The position numbers were made by a program, and so were the translations under genes. DNA of 64,000 nucleotides from Sumerlaeia bacterium (lineage in GTDB: Bacteria > Sumerlaeota > Sumerlaeia > SLMS01 > JAHLLQ01). The DNA lies in contig JAVJSW010000049.1 in the NCBI GenBank assembly GCA_040219255.1, forward strand, positions 58,067 through 122,066, in the 5' to 3' direction. Below, in pieces: positions 1 through 38,700 of this stretch. Position 1 is the stretch's first letter. Each line of letters starts with the position of its first letter. The notes under the pieces were generated by a model. The model was not told the origin of the DNA and did not search any database. It saw only the letters and a program-made list of their open reading frames with translations.

Positions 1-682
1 GATTCGGAATCAGCACCCGCGGGTCGCGGCCTGTGCTCAGGTAATAGTCGATCAGGCGCTCGTAGCGGAAATTCGTCTGCTGATTCAGGAAATCGATTTC
101 CCGGCGCGTCGGCGTGCGTTCTCCCTGGGCGGCGCGCTCCGCTTCAGCCCGCGACCGGTAGGGCGAGATTTGCGCGGGGTCCCTGGCGGGTTCGGCTTCG
201 CGCTCCGCCGCCGCCTCGCGCTCGGCCCGCTCCCTCGCCGCCAGGAAGGCCTCCAGAAGGTCGCGGCTCGGCGGCGCCGGAGCCTTGCGCGGCGCGGCGT
301 TCCCGCCCGACTCAGCCGCCTCTTCCAGCGATGCCGCCTCGCGGAACGCGTCCTGCCAATCGAGCCATAACTCCACGTAGGCGAACGTCTCCGCCTGCTC
401 CTTCCCCGCCAACGCCTCCAGCCGAGCGGCCAGACGTTCCAGCTTTTCCGCCAGGACATCGCGCCGGGTAAGCGCCTCGCCGCCCTCGCCGGGCCCCTCC
501 GCCCGAATGACCACCGGCCCGTCGCCCTCGGGCACCACGGGCGCGGCCTCGCTCTCCGTGGCAAACCGGACGATGTAGGACTCGGGCGCCTGGTCCTCGG
601 CGGCGGGCGCGGCGCTCGAAGAAACGGCGGCGCAGAACAGACACAGTCCAAGCAGCGGGCGGATTTTCCATCGGTCGGTCAT
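1..682 (-). CDS. Hypothetical secreted protein, 3'-truncated at window edge. N-terminal signal peptide (MTDRWKIRPLLGLCLFCAAVSSSAAPA), Ala/Glu-rich helical region.
   Basis: ATG near 682 on the minus strand. The frame stays open to position 1 and is not in the ORF track because it runs off the window. Codon usage (gcc/gag/gcg) matches neighbouring genes. The h-region plus AxA-like site fits a Sec signal. Confidence 0.55.
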   Translation of the reverse strand, partial: MTDRWKIRPLLGLCLFCAAVSSSAAPAAEDQAPESYIVRFATESEAAPVVPEGDGPVVIRAEGPGEGGEALTRRDVLAEKLERLAARLEALAGKEQAETFAYVELWLDWQDAFREAASLEEAAESGGNAAPRKAPAPPSRDLLEAFLAARERAEREAAAEREAEPARDPAQISPYRSRAEAERAAQGERTPTRREIDFLNQQTNFRYERLIDYYLSTGRDPRVLIPN

Positions 683-896: not shown

Positions 897-2768
897 ATGG
901 GAAATCCCCATCTCCCGCTTGGCCGCCTCCCGCTTGGCCTCTGTCTGCTCGCCGGGCTGGCTCTCGCGCCCGGCCTGCGCGCAGCCGAGCCACCGGCCGA
1001 CTACAAAGCCGCGCTGACGCTGCATCAGCAAAAAGACTACGCCGCCGCCCACGACGCCTTCGCCGCCTGGGCCAAAGCCAACCCGGCGAACCCGTGGCGC
1101 CCCAATGCCGAATTCCTCTCCATCAAATCGCTCTATGAAGCCGGCGACTACGACGCCTTTCTGGCCGCTGTCGAAGCGCTGAAGGCGAAAGCCCCCACCC
1201 ACCCTTCGCTCGACGATCTGACCTACCTGTCGGGCCGGGCGCTGGAGGAGAGCGGCCGCTGGCGCGAGGCCAAGTTCCTCTACCGCGATTTCGCCAGGGC
1301 CTATCCCGAATCGCCCTACAACGCCGAAATCGCCAAGCGCGAACCCTACACGAAGTTCCATACCTTCCTTCGCGTTTATGAGATTGAGAAGGATTGGGAG
1401 CGAGCCCGGATCAATTTCCAGGTCTATGCCATCGACCGGTCGAACCCGCCCCACCTGCGCGAAGCGGCCCAGTTCTATGCCGTCAAAGCGCTGGAAAGCA
1501 TGAAGGACTACAAAGCCTTCGAGCGAGAAGCCAAGGCCCTCTGCGCGGAAAACCCCGCCCATCCGTCCTGCGACGACCTCGCGCTGATGCTGGCCTACAT
1601 CAAGACCAAGGACTTTGATTACGAGGGCGCGGTGCTGGCCTATCAGGACTTCCTGGCCCAGTACCCCGATTCGCCGCTCGCCGCCAAGGCCCGCGAGCAC
1701 ATCGCCGAATTCGGCATCCTCACCGGCCCCGGCCTGCCTCCAACGGACCTGACCGAAGCCGAGCGCCGCGAGCGGATTTCGCTCAACGTCTGGTGGCTCA
1801 ACGATCTACGGGCCCAGGGCAAGGACCTGCCCTTCGCCGCCACGGCCCGGTCCTTCGCCAAGAAGCAACCCGGCCACGCCGACGCGCCCGAGCTGGCGCT
1901 GAAGGCCCTGCGCCGCGCCAAGGTGAAGCATAAGGACGACTTCGCCGACACCTTCGCCCTGGAACTCGCCGAATCCCCCCTCGCCAGCCGCGTCACTTGG
2001 CTCGGCGGCCGCACCGGTCAGACCGAAGCCCAAGCCAAAGAGACCTTCAACGCCGTCCGCGACCGCATGAAACGCACCGGCAACGCCCAGGAAGCGATGC
2101 TCGAATACAGCGACTTCCTGACTGCATACGGCAACAACTGGCGCGCCCCCATGGCCAAACTCGAAATGGCCAGCCTCTGCGTCGGCATGGGCGACCGCCA
2201 CGGGTTCAACCTCCTCAAAGCCGAACTCGAAGGCCACCTCGAACCCGAGCAAGCGGACCGCCTGCGGGTTTATGAAAGCTGCTTCCTCTTGGAAAGCGGG
2301 CAGAAGGGCAAGGCGAAGCGGATTCTCGAGGAAGTTTCCGCGCGCAATCCTAGCACAGCAATTTACGAGCATTTTGTCAGAGAAGTGTTTGAGGATTGGG
2401 TTGCTACAAAGAATGTCGGCGCGATTCGCCGATTCGCGCCCCATATGGACAAACTCTACACATCTAGTGAACTCGAGTGGGGTTTCGCTTCTCGGTATCT
2501 CGGCGTCGCTGCATACCAGTCTGGTAAATACGCAGAGGCAGCCCGTCAGTTGCAGGTGGTTTGGAACGAGGCGACGCTGAAAGGTGAGGAGGCAGATCGT
2601 CAAAAACTCTTCACCGCGTGGTGGCTTGCTGGCGTTTACCGAATGATCGGCGACGACGAAATGGTGAATTATTGGGTACGAAGGGTCGAGCGCGAAGTGC
2701 CGCCTTCACGCGTTCGGACGGATATGTTCAAAATGTTTGCCTATGAGGTTTCGCTCGATGAAATTTAG
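897..2768 (+). CDS. TPR-repeat protein with N-terminal signal peptide (MGNPHLPLGRLPLGLCLLAGLALAPGLRAAEP).
   Basis: ORF 699..2768; internal Met at residue 67 precedes a clear signal peptide. Repeated ~34-aa helical units with the W/Y/A/F-x-x-A-x-x-Y pattern. The last ~450 nt have markedly lower GC than the rest of the gene. Confidence 0.7.
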   Translation: MGNPHLPLGRLPLGLCLLAGLALAPGLRAAEPPADYKAALTLHQQKDYAAAHDAFAAWAKANPANPWRPNAEFLSIKSLYEAGDYDAFLAAVEALKAKAPTHPSLDDLTYLSGRALEESGRWREAKFLYRDFARAYPESPYNAEIAKREPYTKFHTFLRVYEIEKDWERARINFQVYAIDRSNPPHLREAAQFYAVKALESMKDYKAFEREAKALCAENPAHPSCDDLALMLAYIKTKDFDYEGAVLAYQDFLAQYPDSPLAAKAREHIAEFGILTGPGLPPTDLTEAERRERISLNVWWLNDLRAQGKDLPFAATARSFAKKQPGHADAPELALKALRRAKVKHKDDFADTFALELAESPLASRVTWLGGRTGQTEAQAKETFNAVRDRMKRTGNAQEAMLEYSDFLTAYGNNWRAPMAKLEMASLCVGMGDRHGFNLLKAELEGHLEPEQADRLRVYESCFLLESGQKGKAKRILEEVSARNPSTAIYEHFVREVFEDWVATKNVGAIRRFAPHMDKLYTSSELEWGFASRYLGVAAYQSGKYAEAARQLQVVWNEATLKGEEADRQKLFTAWWLAGVYRMIGDDEMVNYWVRRVEREVPPSRVRTDMFKMFAYEVSLDEI

Positions 2769-3864
2769 TGTTGTATTTCGTTATCTTTGCTTGGGTGTTG
2801 CCATTGCTGGGGTGGCCTCAGTCTTCGCCGGAGAAGGTAATCCGAGTATTCCTACGAGTTGCTTGCCCCAGGAAAGCATTTGCTATGGGGATCCGAACGA
2901 CCCGCAACCATGTCCGGCTAACTCGGGAAACCCAAATCCAGACGTATGTACGGGAACGTCAAATGGACTGACCGTCGACTGGCATTGGTACCAAATCTGT
3001 GTTGAACGTGAACTCTGTGTAGGTGACAAGATTGATGAATCCGTCATCCGTATCAACGGGTTGCAGCATCCAACAGTACTCCCGGTTCAGTACAGCCCGT
3101 CAGTGGTTACCGAGGCAGGAGTTATTGCTGTGAATGTCAGCTTTGCCTACCCTTGCTGTAGAAACTACGACTTCGGGTGTTGGGGTGACCCGGTCGGAGT
3201 GACCCGGACGGTGTTTATCAAGGTTCATGAATACGTCAGGAATGGTGATGTGGTTCCGCGTGGAGGTATGCGACGAATTGCGGCCGTCATGGGCATAGAT
3301 TCGAGTAATAATTTGCATAATCACGACTATCGCCATGCGCCCGCACCAAGAAAAGATGTTACTGGCTTCGATTATGGTAAGACCGCATCTACTATTGCTA
3401 ACGACCTATGCTTTGTAGACGTTACCGCGAACTATTATACCAATGCTTTTTGTCAATACACATTGACGGTAAGTAAGGGTGCTGTTGCTGGGAGTTACGC
3501 GATCGCGAGCGTTGGGGCGGAGTTGTCCTCGCCAAATGGAAGTAAAAACAAGGGGTACGGAGTAACTACGGAAAACGAAGCACTAAGCGTAACTTTTATT
3601 TTTGGGACACTTTTGGAAGTGTCTTGTAGTCCCGTAGGGAATACTCACACCGCGGATGGAAACTTCACATTGGCTATATCGGACGAAGAGCAGAAAAACC
3701 CGCACGAACCCAAGAAGACCCACGATATCACAGACCCAACCGACTTGACGGTCGAAGCACAGGCTAGGATTAATCTTAGCTTTTCCATGGCAGACGCCTA
3801 TATATTGGGTTCAATTAGCGAGAGCGCACCAGACTCAGGCAAAGTTTTTGATTGGGGGAACTAA
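2758..3864 (+). CDS. Hypothetical secreted cysteine-rich protein (13 Cys, 368 aa); low-GC island gene A.
   Basis: ORF 2737..3864. Met at residue 8 begins MKFSVVFRYLCLGVAIAGVASVFA (signal peptide). AT-richer codon usage than the flanks. No motif I recognise. Confidence 0.6.
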   Translation: MKFSVVFRYLCLGVAIAGVASVFAGEGNPSIPTSCLPQESICYGDPNDPQPCPANSGNPNPDVCTGTSNGLTVDWHWYQICVERELCVGDKIDESVIRINGLQHPTVLPVQYSPSVVTEAGVIAVNVSFAYPCCRNYDFGCWGDPVGVTRTVFIKVHEYVRNGDVVPRGGMRRIAAVMGIDSSNNLHNHDYRHAPAPRKDVTGFDYGKTASTIANDLCFVDVTANYYTNAFCQYTLTVSKGAVAGSYAIASVGAELSSPNGSKNKGYGVTTENEALSVTFIFGTLLEVSCSPVGNTHTADGNFTLAISDEEQKNPHEPKKTHDITDPTDLTVEAQARINLSFSMADAYILGSISESAPDSGKVFDWGN

Positions 3865-3867
3865 GTG

Positions 3868-4842
3868 ATGGGGAGCCTGTCTAGAATAATTCCTAGTCCA
3901 TGGATGGCAGCATTTCTTGCATTGGGATTGGTTTTTTGCTACAATTCCGCGGCTATTGCGTCCGATTCAACGGTTGTAGATTGGAAAATGGATGCCGCAT
4001 GTGAGAACGACTTTTCTTCTTTCTTGGCAGATGAGGATGTTAGAAACGCCCTCAATGAACGGTATTCGCAAATAGAAGAATTACTTCTTGAGTTTGAAGG
4101 CGACAAATTGCCGATCAAGGTGTGGTTTCAGAAGTCGGTCTGTATGGATTTGGAAAAGCTCAACATCAACTTTTCAAGAGTTGATCGGGAACAATTTCCC
4201 AGTTTTTCGGCCTTCATTAGATGGAGCAATGATGCATTCGTCGGCGAAGCTACGGAGAGTATCAATACCGTCATGAGAGAAGGTATTACCCTGCAGAGCG
4301 CAGAAACTGACATCGAGGACTTCACGGTGTTTGCCGCAGCAGTCAGGGACTTGCTCCGTAACCATTGGTGCAAGGGTGAGAATTTGTACATTTGGAGAGA
4401 GAGGTTGTCTCCGCAAGTTTCAGCTGCTGCGGACGAATATGGGAATGTTGTGTCAGGCGGTTTGGCTCATGAAGAGTACGACGCACTTGTCGGCCAATTG
4501 GTAGAGTTTGACCTAGGGATTCAACTAAAGGCCCAGGTACAATCACTAGTGAAAGTATATTCTGATGATAGGCTAAATATATTTACAACGGGGCTGTACT
4601 ACCGCCGTTCCTATGACGAAGATCCACTAGAAGTCTATAATTCGTACGTGAAAGGCTGTTTGGACTGTCGCATTTTTCATGCGGAAATCTCGAAGCACCT
4701 GAATGGGTTTTATCTTTACCCGGTTTTCGATGCATTCACATTTGGAAAAACTCGGAAAGTTCACAGAGTTTCTTCGGCGTCGCTGAATGACCCTGCGTCT
4801 GATAGTCTCATCCCCTTTGATGTCGATGAGTACTGCGATTAA
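3868..4842 (+). CDS. Hypothetical secreted protein (325 aa); low-GC island gene B.
   Basis: ORF 3865..4842 (GTG then ATG). Signal-like N-terminus MMGSLSRIIPSPWMAAFLALGLVFCYNSAAIA. Begins 1-4 nt after the gene A stop (coupled). Low GC. Confidence 0.6.
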   Translation: MGSLSRIIPSPWMAAFLALGLVFCYNSAAIASDSTVVDWKMDAACENDFSSFLADEDVRNALNERYSQIEELLLEFEGDKLPIKVWFQKSVCMDLEKLNINFSRVDREQFPSFSAFIRWSNDAFVGEATESINTVMREGITLQSAETDIEDFTVFAAAVRDLLRNHWCKGENLYIWRERLSPQVSAAADEYGNVVSGGLAHEEYDALVGQLVEFDLGIQLKAQVQSLVKVYSDDRLNIFTTGLYYRRSYDEDPLEVYNSYVKGCLDCRIFHAEISKHLNGFYLYPVFDAFTFGKTRKVHRVSSASLNDPASDSLIPFDVDEYCD

Positions 4843-5370: not shown

Positions 5371-6002
5371 AAATCGGCGTTCTGATTTCCGGCCGCGGAT
5401 CGAACCTTGAGGCGCTCCTCAAGGCCAAAAAGCGCGGGCAGCTCGAGGCGGCGGAGTTCGTCCTGGTCGTCAGCAACAACCCGGACGCGCCGGGTCTGGA
5501 ACGCGCCCGCGAGCGCGGCATCCCAACGCTGGTGCTGGATCATCGCAGCCACCGCACGCCCGATGACCGCCTGGATCGCGCAGGCCATGAAGCCGCCGTG
5601 GTCGATGCGCTGCGCGAGGCGGGCGCCGACGCCGTCGTCCTGGCCGGCTGGATGCGCATCGTGGGCGAGCGCCTGCTTGCCGCCTTTCCCGGCGCCATCA
5701 TCAACATTCACCCCTCCCTTCTGCCCAGCTTCCCCGGCCTCCACGCCCAGCGCCAGGCCCTCGACCACGGCGTCAAGGTCACCGGCTGCACTGTGCATTT
5801 CGTGGACGACGGCATGGATACGGGCCCGATCATCGTGCAGCGCGCGGTGCCGATTCTGGAGACGGACGACGAGGCGAGCCTCTCGACCCGTCTCCTGCGC
5901 GAGGAGCACGGCGCCATCGTCGAGGCGGTGGACCTGTGGTCTCAGGGGCGGCTGGCCATCGAAGGCCGCCGCGTGCGCGTGCGATCATTAAGAACCGGCT
6001 GA
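5367..6002 (+). CDS. purN: Phosphoribosylglycinamide formyltransferase (PurN).
   Basis: MKIGVLISGRGSNLEALL..., the catalytic HPSLLPSFPG, and the DxG (MDTGPII) folate-binding motifs. AAGGAGG Shine-Dalgarno 7 nt upstream of the ATG. Confidence 0.9.
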   Translation: MKIGVLISGRGSNLEALLKAKKRGQLEAAEFVLVVSNNPDAPGLERARERGIPTLVLDHRSHRTPDDRLDRAGHEAAVVDALREAGADAVVLAGWMRIVGERLLAAFPGAIINIHPSLLPSFPGLHAQRQALDHGVKVTGCTVHFVDDGMDTGPIIVQRAVPILETDDEASLSTRLLREEHGAIVEAVDLWSQGRLAIEGRRVRVRSLRTG

Positions 6003-7136
6003 TTCGACGCGCCGGTACACGGCGAGGGTGCCCTCGACCATGCGGCCGGTGCTGAAGCGCTCGCGAACGGTCGCCGGTCCGGCTTGGGCAAAGGCTTCGC
6101 GGCGGGCGGGATCTTGCCAGAGAGCCGCCAACGCCTCGGCCAGCGGCCCCGGAGCCCGCGGCGGCACCAGGACGCCATTCTCCCCGTCGCGCACGATGTC
6201 TGGAATGCCGCCGGTGCGCGCCGCTACGCACGGCAGGCCCACCGCCATGGCGTCCAGCAGCGCCGTCCCTAGGCCTTCCAGCTTGCTCGGCAACACGAAC
6301 AGGTCGAAGGCCGCGAGGTGCTCGGCCACGTCCTCGCGCCACCCTGTCAGCCGCACCCGCTCGCCGAGACCGAGGGCCGCGATGCGCGTCTCCATGTCGG
6401 GGCGCAGCTCGCCCTCACCGACAAAGACGACGCGCGCCCCCGGCAGGCGTTCGATCAGCGCGGGCACGGCTTCGATCAGGTTCAGCGGGTCCTTGTGATC
6501 GACATAGGCGCCGACGGTTCCGATCACCGGACCCGGCTCCTCGACGCCCCACGCGGCGCGCAGGCGCTCGCGGACGGCGGCTCGGGCGTCGCCCGCGAGC
6601 ACAAAACGCCCGGGATCGACTCCGCTGGGCACGAGGGTGATGCGTTCTGGCGCGACGCCCCCGGCGCGCAGCTCGGCCGCGATGGCTTCGCTGATGGCGA
6701 TGTAGTGCAGGTTTCCCGCCCCATATTTTCGCCGCGACGCCCAGTTGGTCTTGATCGGAAAATCCACCCGCCGCGTCACCACGACGTCCGATCGGCCGCG
6801 GGAAGCCTTCAGCGCCAGCGCATGCCCCGCGCCCGTGTGGGCGTGCAGGATATAGCCCTCATAATGCGCCAGACGATGCACCGCCCACTCGGCTCGCGGG
6901 TCCCAAAGCCGCCACGGCGGCACCTCCAGCACGTCGAATCCCTCGGCGCCTGCGCGCCGTGCCAGTTCACCGCCCCGGCGCGCGGCCAACAACTGGCGGA
7001 TCGGTTCGCCAGTCTCGGCCCGCGCGCGCAAGCCCCGCATCAACGCCATGACCTGACCCTCGCCACCGCGAAAACCCTTCTCGGTGTCGATGTGCAGGAT
7101 GCGCAGTTCGGGGCGGTTCAAAGCGGGAGGGGGCAC
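5988..7136 (-). CDS. Glycosyltransferase family 4 (GT-B, RfaB/WcaL-like).
   Basis: N-terminal ILHIDTEKGFRGGEGQV. C-terminal GT4 signature FVLPSKLEGLGTALLDAMAVGLPCVAARTGGIPDIV (E-x7-E motif). Its 3' end overlaps purN convergently by 15 nt. Confidence 0.85.
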   Translation of the reverse strand: MPPPALNRPELRILHIDTEKGFRGGEGQVMALMRGLRARAETGEPIRQLLAARRGGELARRAGAEGFDVLEVPPWRLWDPRAEWAVHRLAHYEGYILHAHTGAGHALALKASRGRSDVVVTRRVDFPIKTNWASRRKYGAGNLHYIAISEAIAAELRAGGVAPERITLVPSGVDPGRFVLAGDARAAVRERLRAAWGVEEPGPVIGTVGAYVDHKDPLNLIEAVPALIERLPGARVVFVGEGELRPDMETRIAALGLGERVRLTGWREDVAEHLAAFDLFVLPSKLEGLGTALLDAMAVGLPCVAARTGGIPDIVRDGENGVLVPPRAPGPLAEALAALWQDPARREAFAQAGPATVRERFSTGRMVEGTLAVYRRVESAGS

Positions 7137-7220: not shown

Positions 7221-9470
7221 TTAGTAGCGGGTTTCCGACGGCGGGGGCAGGACCGGCTGCGAAGGACGGGCGCCACCGCCTCCATCGGTCGGCGAAGGCC
7301 GGCGGGTTTCTTCCTCGCGGTCCCTTTCCGAACCGGGTTCGGCGGGGCGGTCCTGACCGCCACGGGTGCGGACGGGAGCCTCGCCGCCGCCGCCGCGATT
7401 GCCACCGCCACCGCCAATGGAGGCGCTGCCGCCGGTCGCCTGCGGCCGGAAGTTCGAATCGCGGCCCGCGCCGGCGGCCGGCTGGCGCACTTCGCGGGTC
7501 ACGCCCAACTGCTCGAGTTCGCCCGCCACCCCGGCGCCTTCCGCGCCAGACATCAAGTCCGACGGATCGAAATCGAAGTCCCCAGCCTCGATGTCCTCCA
7601 GGCTGATGTCTTCATCCGCGGCGGGCGCATAGCTCTCCGTGTTCTCCGCATAGTTCGTCACCATGCGGCCCCGTCGGCCGTCTTCGTTGATCTGGCGGGG
7701 GATGGTGTCTTCCACGATGGTCGGGGTGATGAAGATTTGGAGTTGAGTTCTATTGGTCGTGGTGGAGCGCGAACCGAAAACCGGCCCCACAACGGGCAGG
7801 CTCGAAAGGAATGGCAAGCCGCCGTTTGTCTCCGCGTCCGAGTTCGTGATCAAACCACCGATCACGCGCGTCTGTCCCGAGGGAATCGTCAAGATCGTTT
7901 CCAGCGTTTGCGTATCGCTTCGGATCAGAGTGAATTCCTCGCCGTCAGCCAACCGAGTGACCGGCTGGGCATCGTCGTTGTCGATCTGCAAGTCCAGCTC
8001 GATCAGATAGCTGTTGGAAATCGAGGGGGTCACTTCGAAAGTCAAACCGTCGCGCACCGTCTGCTGGGTTTGTGTGCGGAAATTGTTCACGTTGTTTGTA
8101 TCGGTGATCGTCGAAAGGAACGGTTCCTCCGAACCGACGCGAATTCGCGAGGCTTCCTGATTCTTCACCAGCAGGCGCGGCTGGAGAAGAGTCTTCGTGT
8201 TGGTGTCTTCAAAGGAGGCTTGATACTCGATGAAAGCTTCGTCGCCCAAGTAAGCGCCAGCAAGCTGGTTGCCGCTCAGCGCCAGGTAAGGAAAGGTCGA
8301 CGCCAATTCCCGGAATCCCATGCCGTCATCGTCATCATCGATGGTTCCGACGGGATTTCGGGGACCAACCCGCGTGCCAGCCGCGTCCGGTGGATTGATA
8401 AACGGATCGCCCGAGATCGCAGCCTGCTGAAGCCCGATGTTGAAGCCACGATTGAACGTCGTCTGCAAGATCTCGGCTTGGATCAGCACCTGCTTCACCG
8501 GACGGTCGAAACCAGCCAGGATCTGCTCCACGCGCTCGTGGACCTCGGGCACGTCTTCCAGGATGAAGACACCCTGCTTGTCATTGATTTCAAACAGCAG
8601 GTCCGGCGTGCGGATGGTCTCGATGATCTCCTGCAACTGCTCCAGGTCCTCGCCGTCGATGCCGATGTTGTTCACATCGTAGATGACGATTTCCGGACCC
8701 ACGTCCAGGATGTCGATCAGCAGCTCCATCTTCTTGATGTTGCTCAGCAGGTCCGTCACAATGATCTGGTGGGTTTTCGGGTCCACCTCGATGGTACCCG
8801 GGTCGCTCTTGTAGGTTTCGATTTTCTGGGCGATGTCCTCCACGTCGGCGTAGCGCAGGTAGAAGACGCGGGTAAAGAGCTGGACGTCGATTTCACGGAT
8901 CAGGCGCTCGATGCGCTCGATCACGTCGGGCAGATCGCTGACGATGATTTTGTTCGTGCGGTTGTCGCTCGTGATGCTGCCGATGTCGCGGGTCAGGGCG
9001 GGTCGGATCGCCTGCTCCAACTCCGCCGCGTTCACATGATCGGGGCGGAAAATCTTCGTGATGACTTTGTTCGGCAGGATATTCTGGCGGTACCATTGCT
9101 CATCGGCGATGCCGAATGTGCCGTCGTCCTGCTTGAACCACACCAGATTGTTCGGCGTGGCAAGACTCGTCAGTGCTTCCTCCAGGGTGGCGTCCGGTTT
9201 GAAAATCGAGACCCGCTGGCCAACCGCGCGGCCAAAGGCCGAGATGCTGGTGTCGGCCTGATTCCCGAGGACCTGCAGCACGATTTCGATCTTGGCGTCG
9301 TTGAACACCGCCTTCACTTTGCGGTCGCCGGGGTTTTCGGCCATTTCCTGGGCCCGGGCGGTGCCCGGCAGGCCGAGGGCCGCCGCCACCAGCAACGCCC
9401 ACAGCACCGGCCACAGGGCCGCGGCGGGGCGGGAGAGGATTGAACGAAGGGGGGTGATCAACGTGGTCAT
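7221..9470 (-). CDS. Secretin (GspD/PilQ family outer-membrane channel) with multiple N-domains and a Gly/Arg-rich C-terminal tail.
   Basis: ORF 7221..9632; Met55 begins a signal peptide (MTTLITPLRSILSRPAAALWPVLWALLVAAALGLPGTARAQE). Several NolW-like N-domains (RVFYLRYADVEDIAQKI...IIVTD). Secretin C-domain signature GGLPFLSSLPVVGPVFGSRSTTTNRTQLQIFITPTIVED. The last ~70 aa are GGGGNRGGGG / RD-rich. Confidence 0.85.
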   Translation of the reverse strand: MTTLITPLRSILSRPAAALWPVLWALLVAAALGLPGTARAQEMAENPGDRKVKAVFNDAKIEIVLQVLGNQADTSISAFGRAVGQRVSIFKPDATLEEALTSLATPNNLVWFKQDDGTFGIADEQWYRQNILPNKVITKIFRPDHVNAAELEQAIRPALTRDIGSITSDNRTNKIIVSDLPDVIERIERLIREIDVQLFTRVFYLRYADVEDIAQKIETYKSDPGTIEVDPKTHQIIVTDLLSNIKKMELLIDILDVGPEIVIYDVNNIGIDGEDLEQLQEIIETIRTPDLLFEINDKQGVFILEDVPEVHERVEQILAGFDRPVKQVLIQAEILQTTFNRGFNIGLQQAAISGDPFINPPDAAGTRVGPRNPVGTIDDDDDGMGFRELASTFPYLALSGNQLAGAYLGDEAFIEYQASFEDTNTKTLLQPRLLVKNQEASRIRVGSEEPFLSTITDTNNVNNFRTQTQQTVRDGLTFEVTPSISNSYLIELDLQIDNDDAQPVTRLADGEEFTLIRSDTQTLETILTIPSGQTRVIGGLITNSDAETNGGLPFLSSLPVVGPVFGSRSTTTNRTQLQIFITPTIVEDTIPRQINEDGRRGRMVTNYAENTESYAPAADEDISLEDIEAGDFDFDPSDLMSGAEGAGVAGELEQLGVTREVRQPAAGAGRDSNFRPQATGGSASIGGGGGNRGGGGEAPVRTRGGQDRPAEPGSERDREEETRRPSPTDGGGGARPSQPVLPPPSETRY

Positions 9471-9641
9471 GAGTCTCGGGGGCTCCATGGCTCCGGGTTC
9501 GGGTCGCGTCGCGTGGTTGGTTTCAACCGGTTCGCACCTGAGGCAGGGTTTCAGGCTTTCGCCGATCATGAGGCGAGGTGTCACGCGGAAAGTTCCAGCG
9601 GCAAAGGGAGAGTGCTCAGGCGGGGTCTTCAAAACGGGGGC

Positions 9642-10574
9642 TCAATTCACGGGGAGGGGTTGGTCGAGGGTTTGGATGAGGGCGGTGATGTTTTCCAACT
9701 CTTCGATAGAATAGGCATGAACGATCAATTTTCGTTTTTCATCCAGCGCGGTGGCATCCACACTGTCGGGAGCCGAGATAGACAAAATGGCTCGAGCCAG
9801 GTCCGAAGGTTTCTCATGTTCAAGGCGGAAGACGCGGATCGGTCCTCCATGGACGCAGAATTGATGTCGTTGAAACCACATGTTCGTGGAAACATGATAT
9901 CCACGCTCCTCGCAACCTAACCACCTCCAATCATGTGGAGCGCACAAGGTGTCGAGGGCTCCTTGCAAGGTTTCCGTGGTCAGAACCAAATTCACATGGA
10001 CGTCGGCTTTTGCCAAGTGACCTATAGGACGAATGTCCGTTGCATAACGATTGGAAAGTATCTCGAGTACATCCCTCAACGGAACCTTTCGAAGGATCGT
10101 CAATTTCGATGCGATCTCCGGCGTCAACACACGTCCAGGGCCAGAACTCTCGTAGAGTGATTTCAATTCTTCCGGTGACGGTAGGTCGGCTGCCCCACTT
10201 CGCCGTCTGCTCTCAATCCACGTTCGATCGGAATAGAAGTATCCGCCATAGAAGTTCTTCTCCCAACTCCCATCGGTCTGGTCGGCGAGAAGAGACAGCA
10301 CGCTTTCGAGCGCGGGGGTCGTGAGCTGGTCCTCGGACTCGAGCGAGAAACTAACCGGCAGCGTCAACTCGACCAGTCCCGAAGGGCAGACGCTGATCCC
10401 AGATGCTTTCGATAGAATCGCCAAAGCCTCACGAACCGGCACATCACGATACACCGTCCGCGAAGTCACGGCTTCCTCTCTGATTGGCGAAGAGATCGCC
10501 CGACCCGCAGGCGCCCCGGCTAAAGCCAATGGCGCCAACGAAAGACAAAGGTAAAGTAGAGCTGGTCGGAACAT
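9642..10574 (-). CDS. Periplasmic protein built of secretin-N-terminal-like modules (STN-like + NolW-like), no secretin pore domain; putative secretin partner.
   Basis: Signal peptide MFRPALLYLCLSLAPLALAG. VPVREALAILSKASGISV (STN-like). IRVFRLEHEKPSDLARAILSI...LIVHAYSIEELENITALIQTLD (NolW-like alpha/beta module). The 3' two-thirds of the gene is noticeably lower in GC than the 5' third. Confidence 0.6.
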   Translation of the reverse strand: MFRPALLYLCLSLAPLALAGAPAGRAISSPIREEAVTSRTVYRDVPVREALAILSKASGISVCPSGLVELTLPVSFSLESEDQLTTPALESVLSLLADQTDGSWEKNFYGGYFYSDRTWIESRRRSGAADLPSPEELKSLYESSGPGRVLTPEIASKLTILRKVPLRDVLEILSNRYATDIRPIGHLAKADVHVNLVLTTETLQGALDTLCAPHDWRWLGCEERGYHVSTNMWFQRHQFCVHGGPIRVFRLEHEKPSDLARAILSISAPDSVDATALDEKRKLIVHAYSIEELENITALIQTLDQPLPVN

Positions 10575-10644
10575 CGGTCACGCTCGCGAAGAGGAGGTAT
10601 GCGGGAGTCCGGGAGGGCCAAACGCGGGCCAACTCCACCGCCCC

Positions 10645-11208
10645 CTACGACGGCGCCGCGGCCGCTTCCCCCACGTCCTCCTCCACCGCCAGATCCAACG
10701 CCTCCACCACCGGCTTCAGCCGCTGCAAAACCCGCCGCTCATCGTAGATCAGCAGGCGGTTGCCCTCCTCGTCCACGACGATGCGGCCGTGGGCGCGCGA
10801 GAGGTGCGGGGCGATGAGCGGAATCAGTTCGCTGGCGGGGCGGTGCTCGAGCTGGAGCACCATCGGCCGGGGGCGGTCGCCCAGCATTTCGCGGTCGTAA
10901 AACGCATGGTCGCAGAGGACGAAATCGCCTCCGTCCCGCCGGAACCACACCCATTCGTTTTTCGCCGCGATTTCCGAGAGGGCGTTCTCCAGCGTCGAAC
11001 TCGTCGCCCGCAGGCTCACCCGCGCCGCCGTCACTTCACCCTCCGCCACGATCCGTTCGCGAAAACCATAGCCCAACGCCGTCAGCACCACCGTGGCGGG
11101 CGCGTCATGGAACGCCAGCGTGATCGGCCGGCTCGTGGCGATGTCCGCCGAACCCGCGCACGCGGGCGACACAAGGAGGCTGAGAAGAGCAAGCACCACA
11201 TACCGCAT
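10645..11208 (-). CDS. Small periplasmic protein with secretin-N-domain-like fold (STN/NolW-like), first gene of the secretin operon.
   Basis: Signal peptide MRYVVLALLSLLVSPACAGSA. ITLAFHDAPATVVLTALG (STN-like). MVLQLEHRPASELIPLIAPHLS..GRIVVDEEGNRLLIYDERRVLQRLKPVVEALD (NolW-like). 70-nt gap to the next gene on the same strand. Confidence 0.55.
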   Translation of the reverse strand: MRYVVLALLSLLVSPACAGSADIATSRPITLAFHDAPATVVLTALGYGFRERIVAEGEVTAARVSLRATSSTLENALSEIAAKNEWVWFRRDGGDFVLCDHAFYDREMLGDRPRPMVLQLEHRPASELIPLIAPHLSRAHGRIVVDEEGNRLLIYDERRVLQRLKPVVEALDLAVEEDVGEAAAAPS

Positions 11209-13257: not shown

Positions 13258-13415
13258 GGCGAAAAGATATTGCTTGCGCTCGAAAGGGATCACGGGAATA
13301 GATTTTTCCTGATCAGCAAATTTACCAGATGAATTCATCAGGCCGCCTTTCTTCCAAGGGACGACCCTCATCCGAATTGCTCCCGGGGACATTGATTTCG
13401 CTCGAGAATGGCTCA

Positions 13416-14822
13416 ATGATGAAACTCTCGGTTTTTCTTTTCTCGCTCCTAATCTGTTCCGTCAGCACGAGTGGTCAGTCGCAACAGACTGCGGATTCAC
13501 AGGAATACGTTTTGTCTGTATTTGAAGCCCATTTGAGGGCGATGCTCGACTTGAGTTCTGTTCAGGGCTTCGGCACCTTTGAGACAATTCAGTATGGAAG
13601 GCCTACCGAGGTTGATCAAGGCGTTCTTGCCAGCCGGATGCGGGAGTACAAAGCGTCATTCTCTCAAGGCGTTCCTAGTTCGCAAGGCATGACGGATGAG
13701 CAGGCATACGCGCTGGCTCTTCATTCTTTTGAGAAACCGACAGAACGGATTCAAGCCCCCTTTACTTTAGCCAGGTATCACGATCAGTTCACAGTAACAT
13801 TTCGAAACTTGATCGTTCAGACTTCGAGTTACGGGGATAATGGCAATGTCACAACTCATGCTCAGCCAAAGCTCCAAGCCTTTTCGAGTCGAGGAGATTT
13901 GACTGTTCGATTTTCTGAAGGGTGGGAGGCCACGCGAGGGAAGAACACTGCGGAAATCGAAGAGACTGCCAATATCCCTTACGTCATGTTTTGGGGATTG
14001 GGCTCATTTCTCGATTCGCGTTTCCATGACATCAATACTACTGGCTTCCTGATTCATATGTCAAGACAGAATCCCTCCATCATTTCGGAAAGCCAACAAG
14101 CAATTGAAATCAGAATCGAGAATCCCGCAACTAAAGTCCCTGACATCTTTGTTTTTGATAAGAACAAGGACTTTGCTTTACTGGAGAGGCGGACATATCG
14201 AATGGGTTCGTCTGGCGAACCTTACTTGCATTCACATGATGTATACAGTGAGTATGTTTCATCGAATGGCCGATGGTGGCCCCGCTTGACCGAGCGAATT
14301 CGTTATCGCGACCCACAGCCAAATACCGACTCCGAAATTGACAGGAAAGAGCGGATCGCTTTCGACGAGATCGCCGTTGATGGTATCGTCGAGAAGGAGA
14401 AGTACGATTTCCTGATCCCTGCCAATACTCATTTTCAGGCTGGCTATGGTTTGAAAAACCAGGCCATCCTTGCGAAGTTGCCATACTTGCAGGAGTTTCC
14501 CGTTCATTTGTCAAGTATCGAAGAGAGCTTTCTTGACGCACCCGTTCCAGGTGTCAACGTCCACGACGATTTCAACTTGTCCGAGTCCGAAGCTCAGGAA
14601 GACATTCCAAGTCGTCAGCAAACAGCGATTTCGAAAAACCTGAGTCCCCCAGACGGTGAATCAAGCGATGTTCGAGAAGCTGAGCCGCGTGCAAACACAG
14701 CCACCGGGCGGACCTCTCAGTTTCCCAGGAATCTAATATATTTTAGCCTGGCCTTGACTGGTATCCTTGCGGCTGTCGCTGGGCTGGTAGCCCTGACCCG
14801 GCTAATCGCTACGAAACGGTAA
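13416..14822 (+). CDS. Hypothetical protein with N-terminal signal peptide and C-terminal transmembrane anchor (469 aa); low-GC island 2.
   Basis: ORF 13329..14822; Met30 begins MMKLSVFLFSLLICSVSTSG. C-terminus NLIYFSLALTGILAAVAGLVALTRLIATKR is a TM helix with a basic stop-transfer. GC is much lower than the flanks. No recognisable catalytic motif. Confidence 0.6.
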   Translation: MMKLSVFLFSLLICSVSTSGQSQQTADSQEYVLSVFEAHLRAMLDLSSVQGFGTFETIQYGRPTEVDQGVLASRMREYKASFSQGVPSSQGMTDEQAYALALHSFEKPTERIQAPFTLARYHDQFTVTFRNLIVQTSSYGDNGNVTTHAQPKLQAFSSRGDLTVRFSEGWEATRGKNTAEIEETANIPYVMFWGLGSFLDSRFHDINTTGFLIHMSRQNPSIISESQQAIEIRIENPATKVPDIFVFDKNKDFALLERRTYRMGSSGEPYLHSHDVYSEYVSSNGRWWPRLTERIRYRDPQPNTDSEIDRKERIAFDEIAVDGIVEKEKYDFLIPANTHFQAGYGLKNQAILAKLPYLQEFPVHLSSIEESFLDAPVPGVNVHDDFNLSESEAQEDIPSRQQTAISKNLSPPDGESSDVREAEPRANTATGRTSQFPRNLIYFSLALTGILAAVAGLVALTRLIATKR

Positions 14823-21293: not shown

Positions 21294-23099
21294 TCAGTCC
21301 AACTCGTCCAGATCCAAATCCTCCAGCGGCCGTTTCGGCGGCCTCGCTGGCGGAGGCGGCGGAGGCGGCGGCGGCTGAGCCGAAGGGTTCGTTTCGCCCT
21401 TCGTCGTCCCCGGAGGCGCGCCCCCCGGTGTGTCGAAGATGCGGTACTTGATTTCCGTGGAAGGCCGTTGCTGAGGCCCCTGCGGCGCGGCCGGCGGCGG
21501 CGCGGGACCCGACCCGCCGGTCGGTTTCGGCGGCATCGCGGGCCGGGGCTGAGCACCCGGATCGTTGCGGGGCGCCTGCGGACGCGGAGGCAGGGGCACG
21601 TTCTCAGCGCCATGGGGCGGCGGCGGCGCGCCCAGCGACACTGCGAATTGCTGCACCGGCGTGTTGACCGGTGCGCGCGGGGGCTGGGCGGGACGTCCAG
21701 AAACCGGCGGAGCCCCCTCTCCCGGCGAGGTGTCGCCCCCGCCGTGGGAGGCCGCGTCCATCATCGCCTGCAGATTGCGTTGCGAACGTTGCGCCGGCGG
21801 ACGCGGTGCCCGGTCCGTATCCCGCTCCTTGCGGCCCCGGGGGCGAGCCAGGGGAACCTTCAACCTCTCCGGATCGATGCTCAGCGGCGGCACGCCTTCG
21901 TTCGAATAGGTGATTTCCAGACCGCTCCCGAACTTGCTGGCGAGACTGATGCGTTGCGGAACCTCGAAATCGCCCTCGATCGTTTCCCACGGATCGTCCA
22001 GGTTGGTCCATTCCGACCCCGTGGTGACACCGATGCCGCGAAACTTCATCTGCAAATCGTCCGCGCTGTCCGCCGCGTTCAACGCGTCGTCGAGCGTGAT
22101 CTGGCCCTGCTTCACCAGGCGGTACAGCGCCAGGTCGAAGCTCTGGATTCCATAGCTGTTCTCCGCCTGAAGGGCTTCCTTGAGTTCCGACATGTCTCCC
22201 TTGCGGATCATCGCGGAGATGTGAGGCGCGTTCACCAGCACCTCGACCGCCGCCACACGGCCGCCGTTGGTGCGGGGCACCAGGCGCTGGCAAATGATCG
22301 CCCTCAGGTTCAGCGACATCTGAAGGTAAATCTGCTCCTTCGCGCTTCCCGGATAGAACCCCGGAATGCGCTCCACCGCCAACAGCGCGTTCGTCGAGTG
22401 CAGCGTCGCCATCACCAGGTGGCCCGTCTCCGCCGCGTGCATGGCGAAACGCACCGACTCCTCGTCGCGCATTTCACCGATACAGATGACCTCCGGCGCC
22501 TGACGCAGACTGCTCCGCATCGCCTGATGAAAGGAATCGGTGTCGATGCCCACCTCCCGCTGCGTGATGATGCAGCGCCGGTGCTGGAATACGTACTCGA
22601 CCGGATCCTCGATGGTGACGATGTGCCCGGGCAGGATGTGGTTGCGGTAGTCGATCAGCGACGCCATCGTCGTCGATTTGCCCGACCCCGTGGACCCAGT
22701 GACGATCACGATGCCCCGGTCGCCGAGGGAAATCTCGCGCAACACCGGCGGCAGCCCGAGCTGGCGCATCGTCGGCACGCTCATGGAAACCCGCCGCATC
22801 ACGATGCCGATCGAACCGCGCTGCCAGTAAACGCTCACCCGGAAGCGTCCGATCTTCGGGTCCATGTACGACAGGTTCGCTTCGCGCTCGCGCTCGAAAT
22901 CCTCCCATTGATCCACCGACATCAATTGCCGCGCGAAATCCTCCAGCGTGAACGGATCGATCCGCAGGCCCTTCGAGGTCTGCATCGGGTAGTAGCCGCC
23001 GTCGCAGGAAATGCAGGGAACCGCCCCAGCCACGAAGTAAATGTCGGACGCGCCCGCCTCGGTCGCTTCGCTCAGAAAGTCTTCCAGTTTTGCCGTCAC
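21294..23099 (-). CDS. pilT: Type IV pilus retraction ATPase PilT/PilU family, with ~230-aa proline-rich C-terminal extension.
   Basis: Walker A GSTGSGKST. Asp box and Walker B VICIGEMRDEESV. His box AAETGHLVMATLHSTNA. The N-terminal 370 aa are collinear with PilT. The remaining residues are Pro/Gly/Gln-rich low complexity ending PPPPPPPPPARPPKRPLEDLDLDELD. Confidence 0.9.
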   Translation of the reverse strand: MTAKLEDFLSEATEAGASDIYFVAGAVPCISCDGGYYPMQTSKGLRIDPFTLEDFARQLMSVDQWEDFEREREANLSYMDPKIGRFRVSVYWQRGSIGIVMRRVSMSVPTMRQLGLPPVLREISLGDRGIVIVTGSTGSGKSTTMASLIDYRNHILPGHIVTIEDPVEYVFQHRRCIITQREVGIDTDSFHQAMRSSLRQAPEVICIGEMRDEESVRFAMHAAETGHLVMATLHSTNALLAVERIPGFYPGSAKEQIYLQMSLNLRAIICQRLVPRTNGGRVAAVEVLVNAPHISAMIRKGDMSELKEALQAENSYGIQSFDLALYRLVKQGQITLDDALNAADSADDLQMKFRGIGVTTGSEWTNLDDPWETIEGDFEVPQRISLASKFGSGLEITYSNEGVPPLSIDPERLKVPLARPRGRKERDTDRAPRPPAQRSQRNLQAMMDAASHGGGDTSPGEGAPPVSGRPAQPPRAPVNTPVQQFAVSLGAPPPPHGAENVPLPPRPQAPRNDPGAQPRPAMPPKPTGGSGPAPPPAAPQGPQQRPSTEIKYRIFDTPGGAPPGTTKGETNPSAQPPPPPPPPPARPPKRPLEDLDLDELD

Positions 23100-35464: not shown

Positions 35465-35760
35465 AGGTGCAAAAAGGGCCGAGACGGCCGGAAAGGCAAG
35501 GGAAACAGAGAGGACGAGCGCTTGGCGGTTTTTTTTCGCCTGGGGTCTGGAGTGGCCAAAAACGAGCGGTAAGCTCTTGAATGATTCCTTAAATTTCCAG
35601 GTGATCCCGCCGGGATCGGTGTAGATTGCGTTTTTTGTACCGCTGGACTTGGTGATGTGAGTCTTTTCGACTTGCCGGTTCGTCCGTGAGTCCCTACATT
35701 TTCCTGTTCATTTTGAGAGAGTCGCCTCTCCAGAAGACCTGCTGCCAGGAAGGTTCCGAT

Positions 35761-38700
35761 ATGACATTGGGCAAACATCGAAACTCGGATTCCCACGCGC
35801 CAGGCGGGCCCGCATGGGCTGGGCTCTTGTTGACAGGTGCGCTGTTGATGGCGGCGGGAAGCGCCTGGGCGGCTCCACCGGCGAATTACTACGACACCGC
35901 CGACACCACTAACGGCACAACGCTGCGGTCGTCCCTGCACAATATCATCGATGGGCACACCGTCTATAGCTACACGGCGGCCTACGATATTATCGCCGAC
36001 GCGAACGAAGATCCGAACAATTCGAACAACACCATTTTATTTTATACTGGCCGCTCGACACCGAAAACCAACCAGGGCGGCAACGACAGCGACCCAGCCA
36101 CCGGCGGCTACAACCGCGAGCACATCTGGCCCCAGAGCGCCTTCAACGAAAACAGCCCGATGAAGTCCGACATGCACGCGCTGTTGCCCGCCGACGCGGA
36201 CGCCAATGGCCGCCGCAGCAACTATCCCTTCCACACGGTGACGACCTCGACCTACGAGTTCTTCGGCAACAAGGTCGACACGGACAACTTCGCCGCGGGC
36301 AACATCTTCGAACCCCGCGACGCCGTGAAGGGCGATGTGGCCCGCGCGCTGTTCTACATGGACGTGCGGTACGAGGGCGACAGCGGCGAGCCGAACCTGG
36401 CGCTGAGCAGCAGCGGCTATCCCACCGGCACCGGCAGCGCCCTGATGGGGTACCTGGACGAACTGCTGGCCTGGCATGCGGCGGATCCCGTCGATCAGTT
36501 CGAAATCGACCGCCACGAGTACATCTACGGTTTCCAGAACAACCGCAACCCGTTCATCGATCATCCGGAATGGGTGGATTGCGTTTACAACAACAATTGC
36601 AGCAACGACACGACCCCGCCCGATCCGCCCATGGGGCTGGCGGCGAATGGGGGCGATGGGTCGGTGTCGCTGACGTGGAATGCCAACAGCGAGGGCGACC
36701 TCGACGGCTACAACGTCTATCGCTCGACGACGATGGGCGGGCCCTATTCGCAGATCAACGGCGCCTTGGTTCCAGCGCCTTCCTACGTGGACAACACGGT
36801 CACCAACGGCGTGACGTATTACTATGTGGTGACGGCGGTCGATACGGCGAACAACGAGTCGAACGACAGCACGCCCGCCTCGGCGACGCCGGAAACCGGG
36901 CCGGGCCTGATCGTGGCGGGGCCGATGGCGGAACCGGCGACGATTTCGTCGCTGCGGACGACGGCCTTCGACGCGCCCTGGAATTTCGATGTAACCATCA
37001 TCGACGATCAGGCCAACCCCGGCGCCGACAGCGATCCGACGCTGATTTCGCAGATTGTCTTCACCCCCGGCACGGGCAACGACTTCGCGAATTGGACGAG
37101 CGTTCTGGCGGGGGCGCGGCTGACCGATGGCACCCACTCGGTTAATGGCACGGTCGGCGCGGCGGGGCTCACCTTCGCGCTGACGAACGGGCTCAACGAA
37201 ATCGGCCACATCGCGGACAACGGTACGAAGACCTATCAGTTGAAGGTCTGGCTGAAGGAAAGCGCCACCGGCGTGGACAACGGCAACCTGGTGTTCGCCC
37301 TGGCGAGTTCGGGCATCGCGACGGAAGCGGCCGGTTCCTCGACCGTTGGCAGCAGCTCGGCGGACAGCGGCTCGACGAACAACGCGATCGAGGTGGTGGC
37401 GACGGAGCTGCGCTTCGCCAGTCAACCGCCGGACACGATCGTCGCCACGGATTTCGCCGCCTCGGTCCACGCCACCGACAAGTACGGTCGCCGCGATACG
37501 GACGCTTCGGGAAACGTAACGCTGTCGCTGGACACGGTGAACGCGGGGATTCTCTCGGCGGCAGGCGGTCTGACAAAGGCCCTCGCAGCGGGCCTGGCGA
37601 GCTGGAGCGACCTGGAAATCGACACCGGCGAAGCCGGCGTGGGACTGCTGGCGAACGCTACGGGCTTTGCGGAGAAGCGCAGCGAGAGCTTTGACGTGCT
37701 GCCCTCGGGCGGCGGCTCCGGCACCCCGGTTTTCGTGAACGAGATTCACTATGACAACGATGGCGGCGACACTGGCGAGTTCATCGAAGTCGCCGGCCCG
37801 GCGGGAACCGATCTGAGCGGCTGGACCATCGTGCTCTACAATGGCTCGAGCAGCCTGAGGAGCCCTTACTCGCCCACCATGAATCTGTCGGGTACGATCC
37901 CGGACTCGACCGGCAACGGTTTCGGCTTCCTGAGCTTCTTCCAGGCCGGCATCCAGAACGGCGACCCGGACGGGCTGGCGCTGGTGGACGACTCGAACAC
38001 CCTCATCCAGTTCCTCAGCTACGATGGGTCCTTCGTCGCCGCCAGCGGCATCGCGGCGGGCCTGACCTCGGAAAACATCGGCGGCGAGCCCACCACTACG
38101 CCCATCGGCGAGAGCCTGCAACTGACCGGCACGGGCTCGGTGTACGAGGACTTCACCTGGGCCGCAAGCACCGCCACGAACACGGCGGGCGCGCTCAACG
38201 GCAGCCAAACGTTCCAGCCCGCGGGCGGAACACTGAACGCCAACGGCGTGCTGGAATTCGCCTCGGCCAGCCGCGCCGGGTCCGAGGACGGCGGCGCCAT
38301 CGTGGTGTCGGTGCTGCGGCTGGCGGGCACGGCGGGGGCCATTGCGGTGCCGTTCTCGGTCGGCGGCGCCAGTACCGCCTCGGGCGCGGACTACACGATC
38401 GCCACGGCCAGCCCGCTCAACTTCGCCGACAGCGACGACGTCCAATCCATCACCATCAACCCGGTGGTCGATTCGGATCACCTGGAGGGGGACGAGACGA
38501 TTGTCCTTCAGTTGGGCGCGCCCACTGGCGGAGCGGCGCTGGGCGCTCAGAGCGAAGTCGTGGTGACGCTGCTGGCCAGCGACCGCACCCTGATCCCCAG
38601 CGGCACGAACCCGCCGCCGCTGGAATTCGCCGAGGGTGTGCGGGCGACGGTGGACTTCAACGACGTGTCGGCCGCGGGCGCTGGCTTCGCCGCCAATCTC

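Follow-up and report, generated by a model that had tools for sequence, protein, structure and literature searches.

A secretin encoded in the Sumerlaeota, a little-studied phylum, is accompanied by two secreted proteins that are built of secretin N-domains and carry no pore. Their genes lie in a 64-kb stretch of DNA from a Sumerlaeia metagenome-assembled genome (MAG), hereafter called the window, as three consecutive minus-strand genes, A, B, and C (Table 1). Judging from sequence comparison, the products of A and B are paralogs of the N0-N1 region of their cognate secretin, the product of gene C. We infer that gene C provides the pore for a type IV filament machine encoded at dispersed sites, with A and B as accessory or adaptor subunits of that pore; we put the probability of this reading, including the binding, stoichiometry, and role that it ascribes to A and B, at about 0.55. 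Secretins are normally described as homo-oligomers with all of their N-domains in cis, and their partners, namely GspC, PilP, the pilotins, and TsaP, have unrelated folds.

An earlier note on this stretch had described three adjacent minus-strand genes with signal peptides and secretin N-domain motifs, of which only the third contains a pore domain, and this description is borne out. The open reading frames (ORFs) are present. The leaders, assigned by eye only, all start with a charged n-region, continue with 15-20 hydrophobic residues, and end in an AxA-type site (ACA/G, ALA/G, and ARA/Q in A, B, and C, respectively). In gene A, Pfam detects Secretin_N at 33.4 bits (cutoff, 28.2) together with a weak STN match, and residues 15-173 align with residues 35-196 of the secretin at 30% identity (BLASTP, E=4e-23). 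The AlphaFold2 (AF2) model of A has predicted local distance difference test (pLDDT) values of 85-93 across residues 28-176, and all of its top 44 matches in a Foldseek search of the PDB fall on N0-N1 regions of XcpQ, GspD, PilQ, InvG, MxiD, EscC, and HofQ.

The Pfam matches of gene B (FecR_C, Secretin_N, and STN) are all sub-threshold, and B is nevertheless assigned because of BLASTP, hidden Markov models (HMMs) specific to this family, and the AF2 model. Residues 169-304 of B match residues 64-195 of the secretin (E=4e-9), the family-specific HMMs score its two N0 domains at 21.0 and 77.9 bits and its N1 domain at 65.0 bits, and Foldseek against the PDB returns secretin N0-N1 exclusively. 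The AF2 model of B is confident in the C-terminal N0-N1 only (pLDDT 70-90), with the first domain poorly predicted. The N0, N1, and pore HMMs, which were built from the family alignment, resolve A as N0-N1, B as N0-N0-N1, and C as N0-N1-N1-N1-pore. Moreover, A and B match each other in BLASTP at E=3e-6, and a profile search of the PDB sequences has only secretins among its matches. Since the domain HMMs, the BLASTP paralogy, and the predicted folds agree, we regard A and B as confirmed secretin N-domain proteins, free-standing as had been proposed and not of a LolA-like or sporulation-related fold. No pore domain was found in A or B by Pfam or the family-specific HMMs, and thus neither protein is itself a secretin. 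Across all 64 kb, the same HMMs detect no N0, N1, or pore modules in further ORFs.

Gene C belongs to the secretin superfamily as an ordinary, though divergent, member, and is the only one of the three genes with a pore domain by either method. Pfam scores Secretin (PF00263) at 110 bits (cutoff, 27.5), along with three Secretin_N stretches. Among the NCBIfam models, GspD (TIGR02517, 175.9 bits; cutoff, 351) and PilQ (TIGR02515, 164.8 bits; cutoff, 284) both remain below threshold, and the PDB sequence matches fall about equally on GspD and PilQ. The full-length relatives constitute a secretin clade with the architecture N0-N1-N2-N3-pore, a long low-complexity tail, and a conserved ETxY end, as in gene C; a classical S-domain was found in none of the clade, the low-complexity tail taking its place. 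Across the clade (loci L004-L023, hits P0013-P0080), the tail is 100-250 residues long, Gly/Pro/Arg-rich, and variable in sequence, and it terminates in ET-x-Y/F, at times with one further residue after it. This end resembles a short C-terminal motif for recognition by a partner.

Which machine does the secretin serve? With an alignment of four secretin sequences as the query, a scan of the GTDB representative genomes (the window secretin alone retrieved none) gave 20 loci, all in Sumerlaeota MAGs, with secretins 46-62% identical to gene C. An approximate neighbor-joining tree places the secretins of locus L023 and hit P0021 as the sister group of the clade to which gene C belongs, in which the secretin is linked to a GT4 glycosyltransferase gene. 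In L023, an ORF with a prepilin motif (GFTLLEV) is followed by a GspK-like gene, a gene for a PilM_2 protein, genes for two small proteins, a gene for an N0-N0 protein, and the secretin gene. The N0-N0 gene of L023 thereby stands in the PilP/GspC slot, after the pilM/N/O-like genes and before the secretin; this position is not seen in the window, which has no pilM/N/O genes. The metagenomic relatives L024 and L026 carry gspF, a pseudopilin gene, gspK, a pilM-like gene, and small ORFs, and then the secretin. From these gene orders, the secretin lineage is one of operons resembling those that encode a type II secretion system (T2SS) and a type IV pilus (T4P). The PilM_2-domain protein of L023 (2537-4411) has 624 residues, about twice the length of PilM, and may be a PilM-PilN or GspL-like fusion.

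Because the sister-clade secretins close T2SS/T4P-like operons, the locus is not an autonomous minimal module, and the earlier view of it as an unusual, self-contained secretin module is not supported. The synteny leads to the same revision, as the window secretin is embedded in a housekeeping block of ABC-F, YmdB, GT4, and RecD2 genes. The note had named two outcomes that would speak against it: unrelated folds of A and B were not found, and embedding in a complete T2SS/T4P operon elsewhere is found in part, by way of the sister clade. Its remark that T2SS/T4P components are not adjacent holds for the immediate flanks and needs amending farther out, since a PilT/PilU-family ATPase gene lies 10 kb upstream of the secretin locus. 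Apart from gene C, this is the only type IV filament component in the window; ORF family scans and prepilin and GspE motif searches of the 64 kb found no others. A survey of the Sumerlaeota reported type IV pilus twitching genes in all MAGs (PMC8092238). Its KEGG table for 16 MAGs lists gspD 0-7, pilQ 0-2, pilM 1-4, pilT 1-12, and gspG 10-15 times, while gspC, pilP, and pilN are at zero in every MAG (PMC8092238 supplement). Most likely, gene C supplies the outer-membrane component of a type IV filament machine of the T2SS/T4P class whose genes are dispersed.

The gene directly downstream of the secretin encodes a GT4 glycosyltransferase, as had been stated and as Pfam confirms. A GT4 ortholog (43-56% identity) immediately follows the secretin on the same strand, with short gaps, in 15 of the 20 loci as well as in the window, and glycan-synthesis genes are abundant in the window. 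On these grounds, the secretin, the GT4 enzyme, and A and B could be read as a module for glycan or exopolysaccharide-related export, independent of a pilus or T2SS, an idea that we find barely credible. The same synteny block often includes RecD2 downstream, YmdB divergent upstream, and ABC-F upstream, all unrelated housekeeping genes, and hence the secretin-GT4 pairing may be plain conserved gene order; it has persisted although the proteins are only about 50% identical. Moreover, the GT4 protein scores below all NCBIfam cutoffs and is a generic enzyme of the cytoplasm, the sister-clade secretins belong to T2SS/T4P-like operons, and we know of no secretin that exports polysaccharide. An origin from an inovirus prophage was also rejected: the similarity to pIV is merely generic, a Zot/pI-like gene was not found, and the synteny is that of housekeeping genes.

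N-domain-only genes lie directly upstream of the secretin in four of the 20 loci (L005, L008, L012, and L023), and the arrangement recurs in deep Sumerlaeota lineages. L008 has two such genes, as in the window, encoding a 172-residue N0 protein (UP_L008a, which contains the lipobox-like sequence LASGC and, C-terminally, the helix RIRQHEERI) and a signal-peptide N0-N1 protein identical to hit P0005. The other loci have one gene each, which encodes a 437-residue N0-N0-N1-N1 protein identical to P0004 in L012 and a 365-residue N0-N0 protein in L023. The upstream gene overlaps the secretin start in L008 and is separated from it by 7 bp in L023; including L005, the N-only genes either overlap the secretin or lie 7-60 bp off. 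The identity of the N0-N1 module to that of its own secretin is 63% in L012, 43% in L008, 31% for gene A, and 22% for gene B and L005. The spread suggests that the duplications differ in age, that divergence has been rapid, or both. Over the range of 22-63%, duplicates of different ages have therefore all retained open reading frames.

Recurrent duplication, with the L012 protein still so close to its secretin, would also accord with A and/or B being functionless, decaying remnants of a partial tandem duplication of the secretin 5′ end. The aberrant composition and poorly predicted first domain of gene B fit such decay, as does the result of word-indexed searches of 5.8 billion proteins with A, B, and the family alignment, which found close orthologs of A or B in essentially the same MAG only. 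We nevertheless consider this highly unlikely. At 22-31% identity to the parent, both genes keep intact ORFs, signal peptides, and complete recognizable domains, and neutral decay across such divergence would have wrecked the frames. Gene A, furthermore, has a confident fold and a host-typical G+C content at third codon positions (GC3) of 0.85.

Searched exhaustively with HMMER against 1.84 billion cluster representatives, gene A yielded 90 hits, all at 31% identity or less except for the copy of the MAG itself. About half of these remote homologs lack a pore domain, and most have signal peptides. The pore-less architectures comprise N0-N1, N0-N0-N1, N0-N1-N1, (N0-N1)x3, N0x5, and poly-N1. With about half of the homologs lacking the pore, the secretin-N-only proteins form a real but unnamed class. 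The number of N0 domains varies in cis as well, as the secretins of L023 and P0021 begin with N0-N0-N1. A metagenome scan with the subfamily of hit P0042 returned mainly full-length secretins and few further N-only genes. No published description of free-standing secretin N0/N1 proteins was found, which is weak evidence of novelty, as the literature coverage was incomplete. We conclude that a secretin with N-domain-only neighbors is probably a recurring, unnamed arrangement and not a new kind of secretion system.

Many free-standing N-domain proteins have a helical motif, R-[IL]-R-x-H-E-x-R-[IV] (e.g., RIRQHEERI), before or after N0; the carriers include L008 9387-9905, L012 9428-10741, and hits P0022, P0023, P0051, and P0064, and the motif is absent from genes A and B of the window. 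In the giant secretin of hit P0012 (3491 residues), about 24 N1-type domains stand in tandem ahead of the pore domain, and hits P0010, P0026, P0053, and P0086 have long poly-N1 arrays and no pore domain.

We favor accessory or adaptor subunits because of the paralogy, the close linkage to the secretin that recurs among loci, the PilP/GspC-like slot in L023, the lack of annotated adaptors in the phylum, and the precedent of BfpG and TcpQ. These free-standing N0-fold proteins bind their type IVb secretins 17:17 around the N3 ring and promote multimerization (PMC12531336). Several points weigh against our assignment. The N-only proteins P0042 and P0093, from other assemblies, are encoded next to a GH18 chitinase or metabolic genes and no secretin, and linkage to a secretin is therefore not obligatory. 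In 15 of the 20 orthologous loci, the 2.5 kb upstream of the secretin contain no N-only gene. Gene B has a foreign-looking codon usage (GC3, 0.58) and a weak first N0, and the KEGG miss of PilP, GspC, and PilN may just reflect divergence in a distant phylum. Finally, N0-N1 fragments of classical secretins, when isolated, are as a rule monomers, and ring formation by A and B would therefore depend on the secretin scaffold.

The first two of these points, together with the very varied architectures of the pore-less half of the gene A homologs, would be expected if A and B were periplasmic N0/N1 proteins with a job of their own (as a scaffold, a receptor, or a binder of peptidoglycan or substrate) and their adjacency merely reflected a tandem-duplication origin. 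We judge this unlikely, given the overlaps and short gaps in L008, L023, and L005 and the recurrence of the arrangement in deep lineages. To our knowledge, N0 and N1 domains in characterized systems mediate secretin or ring contacts, which also counts against a separate function.

Regarding the roles that had been suggested for A and B, that of a GspC/PilP-type adaptor stands as part of the best reading, with the L023 slot and the KEGG table without gspC, pilP, or pilN in its favor, and that of a pilotin does not. By eye, each leader ends in a signal peptidase I-type site and neither contains a lipobox; not being lipoproteins, A and B are unlikely to serve as pilotins. The absence of a lipobox cysteine likewise led us to reject pilotins of the PulS/AspS, MxiM, and PilF/TadD types.

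How might A and B act on the secretin? A partial duplication of the 5′ region of the secretin gene would have given rise to A (N0-N1) and B (N0-N0-N1). Both proteins would be exported by Sec to the periplasm, where they could dock onto, or stack beneath, the N0-N3 rings of the secretin through the N0/N1 surfaces that are used between secretin subunits. Ring or adaptor subunits would thereby be added in trans, and these may make the periplasmic vestibule more stable or longer, or join it to the inner-membrane platform, a task that falls to GspC/PilP and to the N0-fold proteins TcpQ/BfpG in other systems. The remaining parts of the machine would be encoded elsewhere in the genome.

The same paralogy would also allow A and B to act as decoys or chaperones, which bind protomers or an inner-membrane partner transiently, and thereby block premature or mislocalized multimerization or down-regulate assembly. 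In favor of this, we see no lipoprotein pilotin near the locus, the secretin has a disordered tail ending in ETRY in place of a classical S-domain, and BfpG promotes the multimerization of BfpB (PMC12531336). Nothing separates transient from stable binding, however, and two different paralogs are hard to fit to a simple decoy. As A and B are not lipoproteins, they also would not pilot the secretin through Lol. We therefore rate a decoy or chaperone role as distinctly unlikely, and retain accessory or adaptor subunits as our preferred interpretation.

Among the known systems, the closest are TcpQ, BfpG, CofC, and LngC, which are small Sec-exported periplasmic N0-like proteins encoded with a type IVb pilus secretin gene; they bind the periplasmic part of the secretin 1:1 and promote its multimerization (PMC12531336). 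From their AF2 models, Foldseek matches, and gene adjacency, A and B likewise appear to be free-standing Sec-exported N0-like folds beside a secretin. By analogy, we infer that they work most like TcpQ and BfpG. In contrast to A and B, TcpQ and BfpG have a single N0-like domain without detectable sequence similarity to the secretin N0. A and B combine N0 with N1 (and B has two N0 domains), are clear sequence paralogs of their own secretin, and vary in number among loci. Gene C, moreover, differs from the secretins of those systems in having N0-N3 and in not being a lipoprotein. Pfam and NCBIfam give no TcpQ/BfpG-family match for A or B at E≤1.

GspC in the T2SS and PilP in the type IVa pilus resemble A and B in the proposed link between the secretin N0 and the inner-membrane platform, with the L023 homolog in the same gene slot. 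However, they have an HR beta-sandwich, whereas A and B consist of N0/N1 alpha-beta modules, and they have a membrane or lipid anchor, while A and B seem to be soluble (the relative UP_L008a has a lipobox). Membership of A and B in the PilP or GspC family was rejected on the basis of their N0/N1 folds and the lack of any PilP or GspC match in Pfam and NCBIfam. In the rhizobial type III secretion system, secretin N-domains also occur on a polypeptide separate from the pore: the N-terminal domains and the pore domain are reported to be encoded separately in RhcC1 and RhcC2 (PMC3574062, PMC3973906). A split secretin of this type was rejected, as gene C keeps the full N0-N1-N2-N3 and A and B are extra copies, whereas the RhcC pore gene has lost its N-domains.

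The Legionella protein DotD is an N0-fold accessory protein of a type IV secretion system (T4SS). An N0 fold outside a secretin also serves as a periplasmic ring or accessory module in the Xanthomonas T4SS protein VirB7 (PMC3093366). In contrast to A and B, VirB7 and DotD are T4SS core-complex lipoproteins, without N1 and without paralogy to a neighboring secretin. In Thermus thermophilus PilQ, the periplasmic conduit is made longer by additional N-type ring domains (PMC5745081). Those rings all belong to one polypeptide, while the extra modules in the window would come in trans.

The recent TcpQ and BfpG structures showed that secretins can have an N0-like protein as a stoichiometric partner. 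What we see at this locus and among its relatives, in a phylum without annotated GspC or PilP, suggests that such partners can arise more generally, by repeated partial duplication of secretin N0-N1. A broader proposal, which we regard as possible but speculative, is that free-standing N0/N1 proteins are a widespread family of ring or adaptor subunits acting in trans. They would have replaced the classical adaptors in the Sumerlaeota and other phyla without recognizable GspC or PilP, and would build hetero-oligomeric conduits whose length is tuned by the gain and loss of N-modules in cis or in trans. If A and B dock on the secretin, then they would show how envelope-spanning machines evolve new periplasmic layers, and would account for many pore-less database entries labeled "GspD" or "hypothetical". 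If they do not, then the locus holds an ordinary secretin with divergent tandem paralogs.

Table 1. Coordinates of the secretin locus and of the neighboring genes assigned in the window (nt, window nucleotide positions; signal peptides by eye).
Feature	Residues	Position (nt)	Strand	Description
Gene A		10645..11208	-	187-residue secreted protein, N0-N1; Pfam, BLASTP, AF2/Foldseek
Gene A signal peptide	1-19		-	by eye
Gene A N0	27-106	10891-11130	-	
Gene A N1	112-176	10681-10875	-	
Gene B		9642..10574	-	310-residue secreted protein, N0-N0-N1; BLASTP, family-specific HMMs, AF2/Foldseek
Gene B signal peptide	1-20		-	by eye
Gene B N0a	37-122	10209-10466	-	weak
Gene B N0b	155-236	9867-10112	-	
Gene B N1	243-308	9651-9848	-	
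Gene C		7221..9470	-	749-residue secretin, N0-N1-N2-N3-pore and disordered tail
Gene C signal peptide	1-40		-	by eye
Gene C N0		9084-9323	-	
Gene C N1		8874-9068	-	
Gene C N2		8691-8882	-	
Gene C N3		8493-8657	-	
Gene C pore domain	421-587	7710-8210	-	Pfam
Gene C tail	~590-749	7224-7703	-	disordered, Gly/Pro/Arg-rich; terminal ETRY at 7224-7235
GT4 glycosyltransferase		5988..7136	-	directly downstream of the secretin; Pfam Glycos_transf_1 / Glyco_trans_1_4
PilT/PilU-family type IVa pilus retraction ATPase		21294..23099	-	TIGR01420, 404.9 bits (> 319.1); Pfam T2SSE

In the deposited annotation of this MAG, RLY93_12560 and RLY93_12555 are each a "hypothetical protein". The deposited start of gene A is four codons shorter than ours. 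That of gene B is a GTG 35 codons 3′ of the ATG, at residue 36; it affects 10469-10574 of the window and would delete the leader. The frame of gene C stays open as far as 9632 and includes ATG codons at 9488 and 9470. Genes A and B are 70 bp apart, and gene B and the secretin gene 171 bp. A promoter and terminator scan of the locus gave background-level results, uninformative on operon structure.

The low GC3 of gene B compares with 0.85 in gene A, 0.79 in gene C, and 0.82-0.85 in the neighbors, and therefore indicates lateral arrival or evolution under different constraints. Low values (0.48-0.58) are shared by gene B and the ORFs at 2737-3864, 3865-4842, and 13329-14822, amid neighbors at 0.8-0.85; these three ORFs have no Pfam, NCBIfam, or PHROG match. 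Gene B and these ORFs, scattered in the window, may be laterally acquired or fast-evolving. The FecR_C match of gene B raised the candidate of a FecR-type anti-sigma factor, which is defined by an N-terminal cytoplasmic anti-sigma domain and a transmembrane helix. This was rejected, as B has a signal peptide followed by N0-N0-N1 only and scores 19.5 bits, below the 24.4 cutoff.

Past the GT4 gene lie a convergent formyltransferase gene and a gene for a TPR/BamD-like protein. Upstream of gene A, a divergent gene for an FG-GAP/ASPIC protein is followed by an ORF without assignment and then by the ABC-F ATPase gene. The PilT/PilU-family ATPase has a full PilT core (residues 4-347), followed by a Pro-rich, predicted-disordered extension of about 250 residues that ends in the acidic LEDLDLDELD; such a C-terminal extension is unusual for PilT. 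On the plus strand, positions 35686-39333 encode a 1215-residue protein with Endonuclease I and Calx-beta domains, plausibly a secreted nuclease and a candidate T2SS-like substrate.

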